DNA of 4,534 nt from a virus (taxonomy: Duplodnaviria > Heunggongvirae > Uroviricota > Caudoviricetes): IMG/VR virus record IMGVR_UViG_2778261058_000008, positions 1-4,534 of that record. One strand, given 5' to 3'. Made by a program: the position numbers and the translations under genes. Of this stretch, positions 1-4,534 are shown piece after piece (within the stretch, counting starts at the first letter, position 1; each line of letters opens with the position of its first letter). The notes beneath the pieces are model-generated. The model saw nothing but the letters and a program-made list of their open reading frames with translations, was not told where the DNA came from and did no database searches.

Positions 1-2
1 GT

Positions 3-30
3 TTGCGGGAAAAGGAGAGTTAAGTAGAAT
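3..30 (+). promoter_or_regulatory. Candidate sigma70 promoter for the hok mRNA
   Basis: -35-like TTGCGG (3-8), 16-nt spacer, -10 TAGAAT (25-30). Predicted start near 37-39 sits just upstream of the conserved 5' hairpin and gives a ~415-nt transcript ending at the 432-453 terminator, the size expected for a full-length hok mRNA. Window edge truncates the upstream context. Confidence 0.35.
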
Positions 31-43
31 TGCTGCGGGTGCT

Positions 44-60
44 TGAGGCTATCTGCCTCA
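44..60 (+). promoter_or_regulatory. 5' stem-loop of the hok mRNA (tac-like element)
   Basis: TGAGGC (44-49) pairs with GCCTCA (55-60) around a 5-nt loop. The surrounding GCTTGAGGCTATCTGCCTCA closely matches the 5' end of the plasmid R1 hok mRNA as I recall it (GCUUGAGGCUUUCUGCCUCA). Confidence 0.4.
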
Positions 61-94
61 GGCATGAACACCAAAAGGCAGATAGAGAAAAGCC

Positions 95-173
95 CCAGTT
101 AACATTACGCGTCCTGCAAGACGCTTAACATTAATCTGAGGCCCAATCTATGTCTCACAAATGTAGGTTAGCC
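95..173 (-). ncRNA. Candidate Sok-like antisense RNA (type I antitoxin); boundaries approximate
   Basis: Placed by analogy to hok/sok: antisense to the mok-like initiation region. Minus strand has weak promoter candidates (TTGCCT-17-TAACCT, or a TAAGAG -10 that is conserved with my recollection of R1) and a hairpin GCGTC-loop-GACGC (complement of 109-124) followed by a U-rich stretch. Start and end cannot be fixed from sequence alone. Confidence 0.3.
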
Positions 174-362
174 TCTTACGTGCCGAAAGGCAAGGAGAAG
201 CAGGCTATGAAGCAGCAAAAGGCGATGTTAATCGCCCTGATCGTCATCTGTTTAACCGTCATAGTGACGGCACTGGTAACGAGGAAAGACCTCTGCGAGG
301 TACGAATCCGAACCGGCCAGACGGAGGTCGCTGTCTTCGTAGACTACGAATCTAGAGAGTAA
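150..362 (+). CDS. mok-equivalent reading frame, here in frame with hok (70 codons, would give an N-terminally extended Hok)
   Basis: ATG at 150 with GAGG (138-141) 8 nt upstream. Flanking CTATGTCT and AGCCTCTTAC match the mok start region of R1 as I recall it. In R1 mok is offset +1 from hok; here the mok-ATG to hok-ATG distance is 57 nt, so the frames coincide. Confidence 0.3.
   Translation: MSHKCRLASYVPKGKEKQAMKQQKAMLIALIVICLTVIVTALVTRKDLCEVRIRTGQTEVAVFVDYESRE
207..362 (+). CDS. hokD: Hok/Gef-family type I toxin, 51 aa (small membrane peptide)
   Basis: Translation MKQQKAMLIALIVICLTVIVTALVTRKDLCEVRIRTGQTEVAVFVDYESRE: single hydrophobic helix, conserved LTRK..LCE.R motif of Hok proteins, near-identical over most of its length to HokD/RelF of E. 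coli K-12 as I recall it. SD AAGGAG (192-197) 9 nt before the ATG. Gene symbol is by similarity and position, not verified. Confidence 0.85.
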   Translation: MKQQKAMLIALIVICLTVIVTALVTRKDLCEVRIRTGQTEVAVFVDYESRE

Positions 363-371
363 GAGAGACCA

Positions 372-393
372 GGCGGGAGAGTAATCTCCCGCC
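372..393 (+). promoter_or_regulatory. 3' stem-loop of the hok mRNA (fbi-like element)
   Basis: 9-bp stem GGCGGGAGA (372-380) / TCTCCCGCC (385-393) closed by a GUAA (GNRA) tetraloop, 10 nt after the hok stop. Assignment as the fold-back element is by analogy to hok mRNAs. Confidence 0.4.
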
Positions 394-431
394 ACCTCTG
401 ATGTGTCGGCATCCTCAACGCACCCGCGCTT

Positions 432-453
432 AACCCGCTTCGGCGGGTTTTTT
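432..453 (+). terminator. Intrinsic terminator ending the hok transcript
   Basis: Stem AACCCGC / GCGGGTT with a UUCG tetraloop (439-442), followed by six T (448-453). Confidence 0.7.
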
Positions 454-528
454 GTTTTACGTATTCTGGTTTACAATCCACAGGCCAGCCTGAACAACTG
501 GCACCTGCTGCGCCAGCAGAGAAAACAG

Positions 529-801
529 ATGGCGCACAATACCAAATTACACAATTCTGATACCGTTCGTGCCAGCAGGCACGGGCGGCGCTCTCACGCA
601 TTCAAATATGACTGGTATCAGCACGATCCCTGCACTGAAGAACAGGCCGAATGGCTGATTCAGAACTACCGCAGACGTGGGTATGAGTTTAAGAAAGCCC
701 TCAACCTCGATTATCGTCACTGGATAATCTACGTCAGACTCCCTTATTCCGAACGCCCACCGCGTCCGTCCCGCACATTCCAGCAACGCATCTGGAGGTA
801 A
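529..801 (+). CDS. Hypothetical small phage protein, 90 aa, at the position Rem occupies in Qin
   Basis: ATG at 529 (weak SD GAGAAA); stop TAA 799-801 lies 1 nt before the GTG of the next gene, so the two look coupled. The longer track ORF from 403 would start inside the hok terminator and is not favoured. No recognisable motif; function unknown. Confidence 0.5.
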   Translation: MAHNTKLHNSDTVRASRHGRRSHAFKYDWYQHDPCTEEQAEWLIQNYRRRGYEFKKALNLDYRHWIIYVRLPYSERPPRPSRTFQQRIWR

Positions 802-802
802 C

Positions 803-1852
803 GTGCGGGTATTGCTTCGACCTGTTCCGGTACCGGAACTCGGGCTGGTGGTCCTTAAGCCTGGTCGTGAATCCATGCAGGTATTTCATAACCCTCGAGT
901 GCTGGTGGAACCGGAACCGAAAAGCATGCGCGGTCTGCCGTCCGGAGTCGTTCCTGCCATTCGCCAGCCGCTGGCGGAAGACAAAACATTGCTGCCGTTT
1001 TTCAGTAACGAACGGGTGATTCGTGCTGCTGGCGGCGCTGGTGCACTTTCTGACTGGCTGTTGCGTCATGTCAAATCCTGCCAGTGGCCTCATGGCGACT
1101 ATCACCACAGCGAAACCGTCATACATCGTTACGGTACCGGCGCGATGGTGTTGTGCTGGCACTGCGACAACCAGCTGCGTGACCAGACTTCCGAATCACT
1201 CGGGCAACTTGCTCATCAAAACCTGTCAGCATGGATGACTGACGTCATCCGTCACGCAATGAATGGCACACAGGAGCGGGAATTATCGCTGGCTGAATTA
1301 TCCTGGTGGGCGGTCTGCAATCAGGTAGCGGACGCATTACCGGAGGCAGTATTACGTCGTTCGCTGGGATTGCGTGCGGAAAAAATCCGCTCAATGTACC
1401 GTGAAAGCGACATCGTACCGGGAGAGCAGACCGCCACCAGCATACTGAAGCAGCGCACAAAAAATCTTGCGCCGTTGCCTCACGTCCACCAGCAACAGAA
1501 CGCACCACAGGAAAAGACGGTGGTCAGCATTGCCGTAGATCCGGAGTCTCCGGAATCTTTCATGAAGCGACCTAAACGTCGCCGTTGGGTAAATGAGAAA
1601 TACACGCGCTGGGTGAAGACACAGCCGTGTGCGTGTTGTGGCAAGCCAGCCGACGATCCCCATCACCTGATTGGTCATGGTCAGGGAGGGATGGGAACAA
1701 AAGCCCACGATATTTTCACGCTACCGCTGTGCCGGGAACATCACAACGAGCTTCATGCGGATCCGCTGGCGTTCGAAGAAAAGCATGGTTCCCAGGTTGA
1801 TTTAATTTTTCGTTTTCTTGATCACGCCTTTGCAACTGGCGTGCTTGGGTAA
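803..1852 (+). CDS. ydfU: DUF968-family phage protein, 349 aa, with a C-terminal Cys/His-rich nuclease-like motif
   Basis: GTG start at 803 preceded by GGAGG (794-798). Same length and gene position as YdfU of Qin in my recollection. C-terminus reads CACCGKPADDPHHLIGHG...LPLCREHHNELH (about 1630-1760), resembling a zinc-binding HNH-like signature. Confidence 0.8.
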   Translation: MRVLLRPVPVPELGLVVLKPGRESMQVFHNPRVLVEPEPKSMRGLPSGVVPAIRQPLAEDKTLLPFFSNERVIRAAGGAGALSDWLLRHVKSCQWPHGDYHHSETVIHRYGTGAMVLCWHCDNQLRDQTSESLGQLAHQNLSAWMTDVIRHAMNGTQERELSLAELSWWAVCNQVADALPEAVLRRSLGLRAEKIRSMYRESDIVPGEQTATSILKQRTKNLAPLPHVHQQQNAPQEKTVVSIAVDPESPESFMKRPKRRRWVNEKYTRWVKTQPCACCGKPADDPHHLIGHGQGGMGTKAHDIFTLPLCREHHNELHADPLAFEEKHGSQVDLIFRFLDHAFATGVLG

Positions 1853-1864
1853 AAGAGGTGACTG

Positions 1865-2224
1865 ATGCTCATAGATTTGGTTTTACCTTACCCGCCGACG
1901 GTGAACACTTACTGGCGACGCCGTGGCAGCACATATTTTATCTCGGAGGAGGGAAAGCGTTATCGTCGGGCTGTGGCGCTTATTGTTCGCCAGCAGCGGC
2001 TGAAATTAAGCCTGTCCGGAAGGCTGGCGATAAAGGTGATTGCAGAGCCACCGGATAAGCGTCGTCGCGACCTGGACAATATCCTGAAAGCACCACTGGA
2101 TGCGTTGACGCATGCGGGGTTGCTTATCGACGACGAGCAGTTTGATGAAATCAATATTGTGCGCGGTCAGGTCGTTCCTGGTGGTCGGCTGGGGATAAAA
2201 ATCACAGAGCTGGAGTGCGCATGA
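1865..2224 (+). CDS. rusA: RusA-family Holliday junction resolvase, 119 aa
   Basis: SD GAGGTG (1855-1860) then ATG 1865. Translation carries the RusA core PDKRRRDLDN...LIDDEQ; the three Asp at 69, 71 and 90 line up with the catalytic D70/D72/D91 of E. coli RusA. Confidence 0.9.
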   Translation: MLIDLVLPYPPTVNTYWRRRGSTYFISEEGKRYRRAVALIVRQQRLKLSLSGRLAIKVIAEPPDKRRRDLDNILKAPLDALTHAGLLIDDEQFDEINIVRGQVVPGGRLGIKITELECA

Positions 2225-2910
2225 ATAACCAGTATTTACAGTTTGTTCGTGAGCAGCTCATTATCGCCACCGCCGATTTGAGTGGGGCAACAAAAGGTCA
2301 GCTTGAAGCCTGGCAGGAGAATGCCATGTTCGATACAGGGCGTTACAGGCGTAAAAAAATCCGGTACCGCGATGAAGTGACCGGAAAAATGATCACGCGG
2401 GATAATCCACCAATCCCGGGGAAACAATCGCTGGCGAAGGGGACGTCAATTCCTCTGGTAAGTCAGGTTGAGTTTTCGACATCATCATGGCGACGGGCAG
2501 TTCTGTCTCTTGAAGAACATCATAAAACCTGGTTGTTGTGGTGTTACAGCGGGAGTATTTGCTGGGAGTATCAGGTCACCATAACCCGCTGGGCATGGGA
2601 AGAGTTTAAGGCTCATTCTGGCAACAGGAAAATTGCAGAGAAAACACGGGAGCGCCTGAAAAAATTAATCTGGCTGGCGGCACAGGATGTGAAGAGTGAG
2701 CTAGCTGGGCGTGAAACTTATGAATATCAGGAACTGGCATTACTGGCGGGAGTAACAACAAAAAACTGGTCCAAAACATTTACTGGTCACTGGGTTGCAA
2801 TGAAACACATTTTCCACCGGCTGGATAGTGAGGCTTTATTGTTTGTGATGAGAACACGCTCAGAACAAAAGACGGCATTTTCAAAGCAAAGTGTTGCAAA
2901 AGTAGATTAA
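2221..2910 (+). CDS. Late-gene antiterminator Q-like protein (Q82/Qin-type), 229 aa
   Basis: ATG 2221 overlaps the rusA stop (ATGA at 2221-2224) with GGAG 5 nt upstream; an in-frame GTG at 2215 is an alternative start. Gene lies directly after rusA, and its 3' end overlaps a promoter that is followed about 70 nt later by a terminator, the geometry of Q / PR' / tR'. Family call rests on context and general resemblance, not a search. Confidence 0.6.
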   Translation: MNNQYLQFVREQLIIATADLSGATKGQLEAWQENAMFDTGRYRRKKIRYRDEVTGKMITRDNPPIPGKQSLAKGTSIPLVSQVEFSTSSWRRAVLSLEEHHKTWLLWCYSGSICWEYQVTITRWAWEEFKAHSGNRKIAEKTRERLKKLIWLAAQDVKSELAGRETYEYQELALLAGVTTKNWSKTFTGHWVAMKHIFHRLDSEALLFVMRTRSEQKTAFSKQSVAKVD

Positions 2911-2922
2911 AAGGCATATATT
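2894..2922 (+). promoter_or_regulatory. PR'-like late promoter overlapping the 3' end of the Q-like gene
   Basis: -35 TTGCAA (2894-2899), 17-bp spacer, -10 TATATT (2917-2922); predicted start near 2929-2930. Confidence 0.45.
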
Positions 2923-2928
2923 TCGTGC

Positions 2929-2999
2929 AAATCTGATATTTTGCCGATTTTGTACTCGATGGCAAAGTAAGCAAATCCCGCCGCCGAGCGGGTTTTTTT
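2929..2999 (+). ncRNA. Short terminated late-promoter transcript, about 70 nt (analogous to lambda 6S RNA / StxS)
   Basis: Runs from the predicted PR'-like start to the T-tract of the tR'-like terminator; no ORF with an SD inside. Confidence 0.3.
2977..2999 (+). terminator. tR'-like intrinsic terminator
   Basis: Stem CCCGC (2977-2981) / GCGGG (2988-2992), 6-nt loop, seven T (2993-2999). Confidence 0.75.
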
Positions 3000-3014
3000 G
3001 TTGGCTTAACAGGT

Positions 3015-3020
3015 TATAAT
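3015..3020 (+). promoter_or_regulatory. Consensus -10 hexamer TATAAT; possible moron promoter for the MazF-like gene
   Basis: Perfect TATAAT 84 nt upstream of the ATG at 3104, but only a T-rich, poor -35 that overlaps the terminator T-tract. Confidence 0.3.
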
Positions 3021-3103
3021 GTATAGTGCGAAACTGCCTGTTCAGCAGAATCATTTTGTTTGTAGTGGAGTTCACAAGTCGTCATTATCAGGCAAAGAGA
3101 TTT

Positions 3104-3505
3104 ATGGTATTAAAGTATCAGCCGTCTGTTCGTTCTGTTTTAATGTGTGATTTTCGGGGAATGGTTGTTCCGGAAATAGTCAAGGTCAGGCCAGTGGTGG
3201 TCGTGTCCAGAAACAGGCACAACAATCAATTGGTAACAGTGGTACCAATAAGCACTACTGAACCGCTCCCTCGCAGAGATTGCCATCATGAGTTATCAGA
3301 AAACCCCATACCTGGTAATGAGCATATTACTTGCTGGGTAAAATGTGACATGTTGATGACGGTTTCATTGAGCCGACTGGATCGCATAAAAACCAGAACC
3401 TGGGAGGGACGAAATTATATTGTTCCTATGATTGCGGAAGATGAGTTTGAGAATATTAAACGGGCGGTATTGCACGGGATAGGGATGGCTTATCTGTATC
3501 GATAA
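3104..3505 (+). CDS. MazF/PemK/Kid-fold (CcdB/MazF superfamily) toxin-like protein, 133 aa, with no adjacent antitoxin ORF
   Basis: ATG 3104 with SD AAAGAGA (3094-3100). Translation SVLMCDFRGMVVPEIVKVRPVVVVSRNRHNNQLVTVVPISTTEP matches the MazF pattern (IWVDFDP...HRPAVVLS...CVPCTT) with the same 11-residue spacing between DF and RP; C-terminal region also aligns loosely. Could alternatively belong to an uncharacterised phage late-region family such as the YbcV/YdfO (DUF1398) type; I cannot tell them apart without a search. Confidence 0.6.
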   Translation: MVLKYQPSVRSVLMCDFRGMVVPEIVKVRPVVVVSRNRHNNQLVTVVPISTTEPLPRRDCHHELSENPIPGNEHITCWVKCDMLMTVSLSRLDRIKTRTWEGRNYIVPMIAEDEFENIKRAVLHGIGMAYLYR

Positions 3506-3529
3506 TCGAAAACGATTATCGAATTCGAT
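3499..3529. repeat. Palindrome cluster overlapping the stop codon of the MazF-like gene
   Basis: Perfect 10-bp inverted repeat TCGATAATCG (3499-3508) / CGATTATCGA (3513-3522) with an AAAA spacer, overlapping a 12-bp perfect palindrome ATCGAATTCGAT (3518-3529). Stop codon TAA is at 3503-3505. Confidence 0.7.
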
Positions 3530-3540
3530 ATGAATTTATA

Positions 3541-3569
3541 TTGACACACATAGTGTGTTGGCTGATACT
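3541..3569 (+). promoter_or_regulatory. Strong sigma70 promoter candidate with a palindrome in the spacer
   Basis: Consensus -35 TTGACA (3541-3546), 17-bp spacer, -10 GATACT (3564-3569), AT-rich tract upstream (3530-3540). Spacer holds ACACA-TAG-TGTGT (3546-3558), which looks like an operator. Confidence 0.5.
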
Positions 3570-3575
3570 GTCGCT

Positions 3576-3690
3576 GTACCCTGATGGGACTTGTGAGACT
3601 TCCGAACAGGAAGCCAGGAGTAGCGATGAGGTGATGACAAGCCTGCTGCCCCTGTGTAAAAGGCACCTTAATGGTGCCTTTGTCGTTTTT
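3576..3690 (+). ncRNA. Candidate small RNA, about 115 nt (about 148 nt if it reads to the second terminator at 3723)
   Basis: Defined by the promoter at 3541-3569 and the hairpin plus T-tract at 3659-3690. Only trivial ORFs inside: a 2-codon ORF after AGGAG (3616-3620) and a 25-codon frame from ATG 3634 that runs through the terminator stem and has no properly spaced SD. Confidence 0.3.
3659..3690 (+). terminator. Intrinsic terminator candidate
   Basis: Stem AAGGCACC / GGTGCCTT around loop TTAAT, then GTCG and five T (3686-3690). Confidence 0.5.
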
Positions 3691-3700
3691 ATCAAAAGAT

Positions 3701-3723
3701 CCCGCCACTGAGCGGGTTTTTTT
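3701..3723 (+). terminator. Intrinsic terminator; near-identical second copy of the tR'-like terminator
   Basis: Stem CCCGC (3701-3705) / GCGGG (3712-3716), 6-nt loop, seven T (3717-3723). ATCCCGCC...GAGCGGGTTTTTTTGT is shared with 2974-3002; only two loop bases differ. Confidence 0.75.
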
Positions 3724-3845
3724 GTGTCCTAAAAACGGCACAGGACGTTAAACGCGCTGGTGGTTGCGAATACGGGTCTTTCAGCTTGCTGGCTTTTTCG
3801 ACAAGAGTTATTGGTATGTCACGTTAACCAGAAAAGGAAAAAGAC

Positions 3846-4043
3846 ATGCTAAAACAGCAGGATATGACCGAAACTGCCAGAGTAGTGTTTAATGAATTGA
3901 GCGTCACCGAACCGGCGACCGTCGGGGAAATTGCGCAGAACACGTACCTTTCACGCGAACGCTGCCAGTTAATACTGACTCAGCTTGTTATGGCAGGTCT
4001 GGCAGATTATCAGTTCGGTTGTTACAGACGCCTTTCGCAGTGA
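3846..4043 (+). CDS. Small 65-aa protein, probable winged-helix/HTH DNA-binding protein
   Basis: SD AAGGA (3834-3838) 7 nt before ATG 3846. Segment ATVGEIAQNTYLSRERCQLILTQLVMAGL has helix-turn-helix character. Function is inferred, not established. Confidence 0.6.
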   Translation: MLKQQDMTETARVVFNELSVTEPATVGEIAQNTYLSRERCQLILTQLVMAGLADYQFGCYRRLSQ

Positions 4044-4193
4044 AGGTTTTTTTATTTGTGGTAATGGGCGGCTGGTGGGTGTTAGCGGCACCTGCCAGCC
4101 ATCTGCTCATGCGTTGGGGTCACAAGCAAACCTCAGGCCCATCTGCTTTGCGCAAAAGCGGTATGAGCCTATCAGAGAAGTGCTTATTGATCT

Positions 4194-4534
4194 ATGGCTA
4201 ATACTGTAAAAATATCCAGTTGTGAGTTAATCAACGCTGATTGCCTGGAATTTATCCAGACCTTACCGGAAAACTCTGTCGATCTGATAGTCACAGACCC
4301 GCCATACTTTAAAGTGAAGCCCGAGGGCTGGGATAACCAGTGGAAGGGCGACGATGATTACCTGAAATGGCTGGATCAGTGTCTGGCGCAATTCTGGCGG
4401 GTACTGAAACCTGCCGGAAGTCTCTACCTGTTCTGTGGTCATCGCCTGGCATCTGACACCGAAATCATGATGCGTCAGCGCTTTAATGTGCTGAACCACA
4501 TTATCTGGGCGAAGCCGTCCGGACGCTGGAACGG
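4194..4534 (+). CDS. N6-adenine DNA methyltransferase (N6_N4 MTase type), 5' part only; runs off the window
   Basis: Hand translation from ATG 4194 gives MANTVKISSCELINADCLEFIQTLPENSVDLIVTDPPYF... with the catalytic DPPY motif in the SVDLI-x-x-DPPY context seen in beta-class adenine methylases such as E. coli YhdJ. In-frame TGA directly upstream (4188-4190) fixes the start. No stop before the window end, which is why it is missing from the ORF track. Confidence 0.85.
   Translation, partial: MANTVKISSCELINADCLEFIQTLPENSVDLIVTDPPYFKVKPEGWDNQWKGDDDYLKWLDQCLAQFWRVLKPAGSLYLFCGHRLASDTEIMMRQRFNVLNHIIWAKPSGRWN

Follow-up and report, generated by a model that had tools for sequence, protein, structure and literature searches.

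A PemK/MazF-family gene of an Escherichia coli prophage accompanied by a conserved structured RNA: a candidate type III-like toxin–antitoxin module

The endoribonucleases ToxN and AbiQ are Kid/MazF-like RNases that are inhibited by RNA; in the ToxIN system, such a related-fold RNase is blocked by its own RNA. The phage phiTE reportedly carries a pseudo-ToxI, that is, an RNA-only decoy. Here, a 4534-nt stretch of viral DNA (Caudoviricetes; positions 1–4534 of the IMG/VR record IMGVR_UViG_2778261058_000008), hereinafter referred to as the window, was analyzed with regard to its PemK/MazF-family gene (3104–3505). The window represents the late-regulatory region of a lambdoid Escherichia coli prophage, and the PemK/MazF-family gene is followed in it by a gene for a conserved structured small RNA (sRNA, 3576–3689). 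The toxin gene and the sRNA almost certainly constitute one functional unit. It is proposed with moderate confidence that these two genes form a type III-like toxin–antitoxin (TA) module in which the sRNA would neutralise the RNase.

The module resembles the type III systems (ToxIN, AbiQ/antiQ, CptIN and TenpIN) in the Kid/MazF-related endoribonuclease fold, the adjacent non-coding RNA (ncRNA) and the absence of a protein antitoxin; in addition, it occurs both on plasmids and in prophages, and RNA-only phage copies of it exist. An adjacent ncRNA gene linked to an RNase-family toxin was found in 83 of the 86 sources analyzed. Unlike the type III systems, the RNA is one multi-hairpin unit of 111–132 nt and not an array of ~36-nt repeats, it is located downstream of the toxin in the window and in the 83 sources, where it has its own conserved sigma-70 promoter, and the toxin belongs to PemK_toxin and not to the ToxN/AbiQ, CptN or TenpN families. 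With the type II toxins MazF, PemK (Kid) and ChpBK, the protein shares PF02452 above threshold, an SH3-like barrel fold and conserved equivalents of Arg29/Thr52. It differs from them in that a MazE/PemI-type antitoxin gene is missing and a structured sRNA gene is always present; moreover, the protein has an extra C-terminal helix (residues 112–125) and belongs to a separate clade. The module fails two defining features of type III and one of type II, and is filed here in neither type.

A genome scan revealed 508 such toxin loci in 185,579 species genomes. For 80 loci with a homologous gene, which were obtained from a one-genome-per-species scan (86 sources in all), an nhmmer search with the downstream non-coding stretch was performed, and in most of them an element was found directly after the homologous gene. 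The taxa bearing this element include Pseudomonas, Caulobacteraceae, Burkholderiales, Neisseria, Pasteurellaceae and Acinetobacter, as well as Geobacteraceae, Anaerolineales, Saccharibacteria and Lloydbacteria. A covariance model, R1, was built from 27 sequences with a hand-drawn structure. It matched exactly one copy per locus, on the toxin strand and just 3' of the gene, in the 83 sources mentioned above. The three sources without a downstream match were a 1-kb contig ending too early, a Kingella locus (L080) and an Alysiella locus (L075). In the Kingella locus, a diverged RNA-like element (2857–2971) containing a promoter, the hairpins P2 and P3, the loop GAUUGUCAAG and a terminator is located directly upstream of the toxin, and its terminator abuts the toxin ribosome-binding site (RBS). 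This locus alone has the classical type III order, with the RNA first and the terminator between the two genes. In the Alysiella locus, only a chance-level R1 match (7.1 bits, E = 0.79) was found at the same upstream position (2877–2971).

The RNA was also detected by R1 in three plasmid loci, namely in a mobilizable 6.9-kb Citrobacter plasmid (82.6 bits), in Kingella potus and in Fluviibacter. Thus, the module is present in prophages, on chromosomes and on small mobilizable plasmids. An earlier suggestion, made in the original prediction for this DNA, that the gene encodes a phage-deployed toxin is tenable for the prophage copy considered here and fails for the family, since the same unit is found on chromosomes and small plasmids. 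The neighbouring genes (a type III restriction–modification system, HicB, ParDE, Panacea) are of the kind usually encountered in defence or TA islands. Outside phages, the genes downstream of the module vary and are often on the opposite strand, and this linkage with variable downstream genes rules out a chance neighbour or a leader of the downstream gene. In the Pseudomonas contigs examined, the module locus keeps the same flanking genes.

Comparison of the window with the Enterobacter prophage copies showed DNA similarity at 3081–3688 only (74% identity), i.e., from 23 nt before the toxin start codon to 183 nt past the stop codon. This common stretch extends exactly from the toxin RBS to the RNA terminator. 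The sRNA, whose elements are listed in Table 1, has a minimum free energy of −43.9 kcal/mol (z = −4.4 versus shuffles) and was recognized in the window by R1 with 106 bits (E = 1.5e-20). The promoter layout, consisting of a −35 box TTGnnn, a spacer of 17 nt, a −10 box nAnAnT and a +1 position at the G of GTWCCC, is kept in 51 loci from many taxa. A short linker, UGUGAA, connects P3 with the terminator, and the terminator hairpin is followed by the tail UUUGUCGUUUU in the window and by the conserved tail UUUGUCNUUU across the loci. The P3 apical loop GAUGACAAG is, we infer, a candidate protein-contact or pseudo-substrate site.

The structure was evaluated using 78 distinct sRNA sequences. Pairing was observed in 89% of cells compared with 75% in column shuffles, 21 of the 32 pairs had changed on both sides, and P2 and the outer P3 helices each showed four to six pair types. 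The covariation score was 0.445 versus 0.185 for shuffles and at most 0.089 when the partners were slid by 1–3 columns; the alignment was fitted to R1, which favours the structure, but the effect is large. Many G–U pairs are compatible with the plus strand only. The sRNA lengths (111–132 nt) change in steps that are not multiples of three; therefore, it is not a small protein gene. RNAalifold applied to the raw MAFFT alignment under-called P3 and the terminator due to misalignment and was replaced by the hand-drawn structure and the covariance model. Pseudoknots in which the GACAAG loop would pair either with the CUUGU of J1/2 or with the UUGUC of the tail received no support, as the variants GAUAACAAG, ACACG and CCGGUAAGAC were found by eye to be uncompensated.

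A search of Rfam 15 revealed no family at E ≤ 1, either at 3541–3725 of the window or at the sRNA element in seven other loci. In RefSeq, the sRNA is unannotated or overlain by "hypothetical protein" calls. Such a call runs across the sRNA in about a dozen genomes of Shiga toxin-producing E. coli (L002, 6727–6924; L003, 6765–7685), and in strain C5, an AraC-type helix-turn-helix (HTH) gene starts inside the sRNA 3' end. These calls are probably annotation artefacts arising from the unrecognised RNA gene. The interval separating the toxin stop codon from the −35 box of the sRNA holds 2.5 copies of a 13-nt unit, ATCGATAATCGAA (3498–3535), and a perfect 12-nt palindrome, ATCGAATTCGAT (3518–3529); this region could be an operator or a hairpin.

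As for the protein, the translated open reading frame (ORF) 3104–3505 contains the motifs D16-F17, R29-P30-VVVVS35 and V47-P48-I-S50-T-T52, from which a MazF/PemK fold had originally been predicted. This assignment was confirmed. The Pfam profile PemK_toxin (PF02452) was the sole match of the product at E ≤ 0.1 (E = 5.6e-14; 52.7 bits with a cut-off of 23.1), and in the profile and structure comparison with MazF, the toxin family and fold were found, with the motifs far beyond chance. The product also matched PHROG 15698, whose function is unknown (E = 1.5e-47), and PHROG 1936, "MazF-like growth inhibitor" (E = 5e-10), and in PGAP annotation, the identical gene appears as "type II TA system PemK/MazF family toxin". 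Modeling with AlphaFold2 from 23 homologues led to a model with a predicted local distance difference test (pLDDT) value of 89.7. A Foldseek search of this model against the PDB returned MazF-family toxins for all of the best 50 matches listed (probability 1.00; template modeling scores of 0.6–0.8), including MoxT, YdcE and proteins of S. aureus, B. cereus, M. tuberculosis, B. subtilis and E. coli. A search of the PDB by sequence gave chance matches only (GabR, E > 1), the fold search alone being informative, and PADLOC yielded no match for the product. The score for the NCBIfam MazF equivalog was far below the cut-off (13.9 versus 120 bits). Judging by its sequence, the product is not an orthologue of E. 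coli MazF.

By motif, R29 and S50 likely match Arg29 and Thr52, the catalytic residues in E. coli MazF; this equivalence comes from reading the motifs (HRP-AVVLS / VPCT versus VRP-VVVVS / VPIS) and not from structural superposition. Neither residue varies among the 23 diverse homologues aligned, which gives no indication of catalytic decay, and the earlier alternative of a catalytically altered protein was not supported. Taken together with the predicted model, the protein would be a MazF-fold sequence-specific endoribonuclease using R29 and S50.

The clade of the product is labelled "YifN (PemK superfamily)" by JGI. The same broad clade of the PemK superfamily also includes E. coli YifN (b3777, which is a pseudogene in K-12); YifN has the PPEMIKNR..VVPLSTT motifs and is likewise solitary, with no annotated antitoxin, but differs by an insertion in the N-terminal half. 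R1 found no match near K-12 yifN, even with the filters off. Downstream of the yifN pseudogene (L094, ~4905–5012, minus strand), a strong promoter TTGACA-17-GATAAT, a 5' hairpin GUAGCCC..GGCC and a terminator were found. These elements predict an unannotated RNA of ~75 nt at a position equivalent to that of the sRNA, which may be a diverged or a different RNA partner. In the GenBank phage collection, toxin homologues were found only in 11 Vibrio cyclitrophicus "PE" elements (H46–H56), which are 13–15 kb long and carry the homologue (37% identity) at one end of the record.

Loss of the two genes was found to be one-sided. No clear case of an intact toxin gene without the RNA was found among the evaluable loci, the Alysiella locus having a chance-level match only. 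A disrupted (truncated) toxin next to a high-scoring RNA was found in three chromosomal loci (L024, L025 and L046). When viral contigs were scanned with an RNA-only pattern, 42 loci were obtained, 26 of them with the toxin directly upstream; toxin-less RNA was present in 13 evaluable viral contigs, in at least four contexts. Among complete E. coli genomes, the RNA occurs in 37, and the toxin together with the RNA in 24. In E. coli prophages with the same Q gene, the toxin-less copies carry a clean deletion of 498 bp (window positions 3053–3550), by which the 5' untranslated region (UTR) of the toxin, its ORF and the −35 box ahead of the sRNA have been removed. The toxin was lost independently in a phage carrying another Q family, where 36 nt replace its segment. 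Prophages have therefore lost the toxin through at least two independent deletions, and toxin pseudogenes occur as well. The toxin is dispensable if the RNA stays, and the RNA is never lost first, which is the pattern that an antitoxin predicts.

Two RNA-only arrangements were recorded separately. The prophage of E. coli E9 (L138, 1415–1625) has a different Q protein, and the sRNA body, from its position 8 on, is located ~60 nt behind a lambda-like pR' promoter (TTGATT..TAAATT, then AACGATGGG); owing to this fusion, the sRNA would be a constitutive pR' leader transcript. In E. coli A34 (L139), a diverged full RNA copy and an internally deleted remnant with the 5' end joined to the terminator (1300–1345 and 1489–1600) are flanked by a Panacea-domain gene on one side and a ParD/ParE pair on the other in a prophage region that has no MazF-like gene.

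If the module is a type III-like TA system, a strong constitutive promoter belonging to the sRNA gene would keep the sRNA in excess. The sRNA would probably also form the 3' end of the toxin mRNA, because there is no terminator between the toxin ORF and the RNA gene, and such a shared transcript would guarantee at least one RNA per toxin message. The sRNA would bind the protein directly and block the RNA-binding groove of the MazF-like dimer, probably via the invariant single-stranded elements, namely CUUGUGAGAC, the GAUGACAAG loop and the UUUGUC tail. Once the RNA supply stopped, either through loss of the element or because an infecting phage shut off transcription, the RNA would decay and the freed RNase would arrest the cell, resulting in addiction or abortive infection.

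Several points weigh against this proposal. The sRNA is a single structured unit with no tandem repeat array within 3541–3725, and its downstream location and separate promoter set it apart from every described type III system. The protein (40–55% identity) is less conserved than several segments of the RNA, and this difference may reflect a constraint other than binding of this protein. The Pseudomonas locus, with its constant flanking genes, looks vertically inherited and not selfish. The RNA is kept in RNA-only copies, so it is probably useful without the toxin, and some distant plasmid homologues also have an uncharacterised ORF directly upstream. Toxicity, RNA–protein binding and neutralisation are all steps that we infer from sequence comparison.

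Some of these features would also be expected of a non-toxic ribonucleoprotein, in which the MazF-fold protein would be a binding or processing factor (cf. Cas6, ProQ/FinO) and the sRNA the effector, with a role such as the regulation of transcripts from the host or the phage. The persistence of the RNA with intact structure and without the protein in many prophages is in line with this, as are the prophage that fuses the RNA behind a lambda-like pR', so that it would be made constitutively like other pR' leader sRNAs, the higher conservation of the RNA motifs relative to the protein and the synteny of the Pseudomonas locus. Such a ribonucleoprotein is nevertheless considered unlikely, given that the catalytic Arg and Ser of cleaving MazF proteins are invariant and that the distribution is patchy and mobile, with copies in 24 of 5426 E. 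coli genomes, on small plasmids, at moron sites of prophages and in defence islands. In addition, the protein was never found without the RNA, and this one-sided loss is predicted by addiction, whereas a ribonucleoprotein need not show it.

It is improbable that the toxin is silent or inactive in the prophage, for instance as a Q-dependent host shut-off RNase, and that the RNA is an unrelated late-leader or terminator element. For the toxin gene, no convincing −35/−10 pair was found, only a lone TATAAT at 3015–3020; the gene lies behind a terminator and downstream of the candidate late promoter pR', and the RNA, with or without the toxin, is repeatedly located right after late regulators (Q of PF06323, Q of PF03589, Mu Mor). 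However, the RNA and the toxin are linked outside phages, on chromosomes and plasmids with variable downstream genes, and the catalytic residues are conserved. The sRNA does resemble the pR'–tR' transcripts (lambda 6S RNA, StxS and Salmonella IsrK) in its location directly downstream of Q and its end at a strong terminator, and in the E9 prophage, its body is fused behind a lambda-like pR' as in lambdoid pR' leaders. These transcripts differ in being phage-specific leaders with no linked RNase, whereas conservation of the sRNA extends well beyond phages and it has a promoter of its own, and the window contains a separate pR'–terminator unit before it.

A type I-like mode of action, in which the sRNA would pair with the 5' UTR or start codon of the toxin mRNA and block translation or trigger decay with no protein binding, is marginally less probable still. 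The P3 loop is complementary to the toxin 5' UTR at approximately −22 to −29 in three loci, with matches of 12 nt in Enterobacter (L004), 10 nt in Neisseria (L009) and 11 nt in L043. In the window, a 9-bp match with two G–U pairs (−28 to −20) was noticed by reading the sequence and not by a tool, while the complementarity scan chose another 9-nt run at −55 (p = 0.19). Overall, 3 of 68 loci reached p ≤ 0.05 versus shuffled UTRs, as expected by chance, the longest run had a median of 6 nt, and duplex folding of the whole RNA against the toxin 5' region gave z near 0. Furthermore, the RNA gene does not lie antisense to the toxin gene. The 5' UTRs of the toxin genes lack conservation, whereas the RNA motifs are near-invariant across phyla, so the RNA is more likely recognised by the conserved protein, as in ToxIN.

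A protein antitoxin was also sought. No conserved small ORF that could encode an adjacent co-transcribed antitoxin was found on either side of 3104–3505. Upstream, as had been stated earlier, there is only the terminator (2977–2992) with its T run, followed by 103 nt; the accompanying statement that nothing lies downstream is correct for protein genes but overlooked the conserved RNA gene. The DNA of an overlapping upstream ORF (3019–3150, 43 aa) is not conserved with the Enterobacter copies, in which similarity begins at 3081. Gene calls at 10 places near homologues in Enterobacter, Pseudomonas and Geobacter revealed no small adjacent protein gene, the gaps around the homologues in these genera being 180–800 nt upstream and 200–1300 nt downstream. 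Six-frame ORF clustering over the 80 loci, used as a search for a conserved protein neighbour, mainly gave spurious high-GC ORFs and was rejected; a "QACHHL" pseudo-peptide shared among the clustered ORFs pointed to the conserved DNA. A micro-ORF from a conserved AUG in the loop was also discarded, as its frame is lost after a few codons.

The original prediction had named as possible unconventional antitoxins an RNA or the 65-aa HTH protein (3846–4043) acting in trans. Comparative evidence speaks strongly for an RNA partner within the region flagged at that time (3541–3723), which would be the putative antitoxin; the part concerning the 65-aa protein was not supported. Many antitoxins are small DNA binders and the 65-aa protein has weak TrmB/MarR-type HTH matches (E = 0.0025, below the Pfam threshold), but a protein antitoxin in trans, whether this protein or an unrecognised small ORF, is extremely improbable, as the 65-aa gene is part of the phage backbone, accompanies the methylase in phiP27, Stx phages and RNA-only prophages without the toxin, and is absent beside the toxin in Enterobacter, Pseudomonas and Geobacter, while the ORFs over the RNA region (3541–3711, plus strand; 3490–3741, minus strand) have no family matches and no reading frame is kept across the sRNA, given its length steps. 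In phiP27 and many Stx2 phages, the 65-aa protein (PHROG 331) and the methylase (4194–4534) occur as a conserved pair, independently of the toxin module.

More broadly, the module could represent an undescribed, widespread TA class in which a PemK/MazF RNase is held by a single, independently transcribed and highly structured sRNA of ~115–130 nt, i.e., a fourth type III-like family of distinct architecture, with RNA-only temperate phages using the RNA, made from or near the late promoter, as an anti-toxin decoy against toxin-bearing hosts or rival prophages; this wider proposal is put forward tentatively. In the literature accessible without subscription, no description of this RNA or of an RNA-controlled PemK/MazF protein was found. 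Judging by term counts, "MazF", "PemK" and "YifN" are absent from a 2026 preprint on ncRNA–protein co-evolution, and no Rfam family or PADLOC model for the module was found. Within the idea of an RNA antitoxin, the new features are the canonical MazF-family toxin, the single structured RNA, the independent promoter and the usually reversed gene order.

Such genes are now annotated as "type II PemK/MazF family toxin" and have no partner. If the RNA is the antitoxin, the MazF family, a textbook example of type II toxins, would also have an RNA-controlled branch, and repeat arrays would not be required for type III systems. The sRNA would provide a new protein-binding RNA fold for structural work, and the pair could serve as a compact tool consisting of an RNase and its RNA inhibitor. 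This would also account for the seemingly lethal "orphan toxin" that prophages of pathogenic E. coli carry, and for the RNA-only prophages, a concrete hypothesis, namely immunity or anti-defence, would be available.

Of 5426 complete E. coli genomes, 24 contain DNA nearly identical to window positions 2900–3850; in each case it is part of a prophage, with Q on one side and the methylase or lysis genes on the other. The module is flanked by two 27-nt direct repeats with 93% identity, each containing a terminator; the left one probably represents tR', the late terminator of the phage. The phages phiP27 and Stx, which do not have the module, are similar to the window exactly from position 3701 on, within the right repeat. 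The repeats are the putative left and right edges of the inserted module. Together, the flanking terminator repeats and the phiP27/Stx similarity starting from the second copy suggest insertion of the module, as a moron, into the late terminator site 3' of the candidate pR'. With the module in this position behind Q and pR', antitermination by Q would also raise toxin transcription on induction, and the module may have a role during lytic growth. In Enterobacter, copies of the module are located after a Q gene of another family (PF03589) or after Mu Mor/gp27, and before lysis genes.

Table 1. Features of the window (4534 nt) and the evidence for them.
Feature	Position	Strand	Evidence or remarks
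hok/sok module	37–362		Rfam sok, 121.7 bits at 37–212; Hok Pfam match
DUF968/NinG-like gene	803–1852
rusA	1865–2224
Antiterminator Q gene	2215–2910		Family PF06323
Candidate late promoter pR'	2894–2922		TTGCAA-17-TATATT; overlaps the end of Q, terminator after it
27-nt direct repeat, left copy	2975–3001	+	Intrinsic terminator, stem 2977–2992 and T run (terminator scan)
Toxin ribosome-binding region, start of the horizontally shared module	3081–3103	+	AAAGAG at 3092–3097, read from the sequence
PemK/MazF-family gene	3104–3505	+	133 aa
sRNA sigma-70 promoter	3541–3569	+	TTGACA-17-GATACT; 10/12 consensus matches
Conserved structured sRNA	3576–3689	+	114 nt, 71 nt downstream of the toxin ORF
P1 hairpin	3576–3590	+	5' end of the sRNA
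Single-stranded CUUGUGAGAC	3590–3599	+	Near-invariant
P2 hairpin	3599–3613	+	Length variable among loci
P3 hairpin	3615–3654	+	Long, three-part
P3 apical loop GAUGACAAG	3633–3641	+	Contains ACA; (nearly) invariant columns in the 27-sequence alignment
sRNA intrinsic terminator	3659–3690	+	Hairpin 3659–3681; terminator scan; kept in all loci
27-nt terminator repeat, right copy	3699–3725	+	Direct-repeat and terminator scans
Gene of 65-aa winged-helix protein	3846–4043
N6/N4 DNA methylase gene, start only	From 4194 (in window to 4534)

Other elements were observed in the window and next to the module elsewhere. The pR'–terminator unit (2894–3000) predicts a leader RNA of ~70 nt, for which the comparison with Rfam gave only a sub-threshold match to Salmonella IsrK (19.5 bits, E = 0.51). 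With hok/sok and the MazF-like gene with its sRNA both in the window, the prophage has two RNA-linked toxin modules within 3.5 kb. Just 3' of the module, three tRNAs were found in Enterobacter prophages (L004, 4684–4988), a C4 antisense RNA (P1/P7-type immunity RNA) in P. putida (L046, 3957–4043) and a group II intron in a metagenome-assembled genome of Saccharibacteria (L043, 3611–3907).

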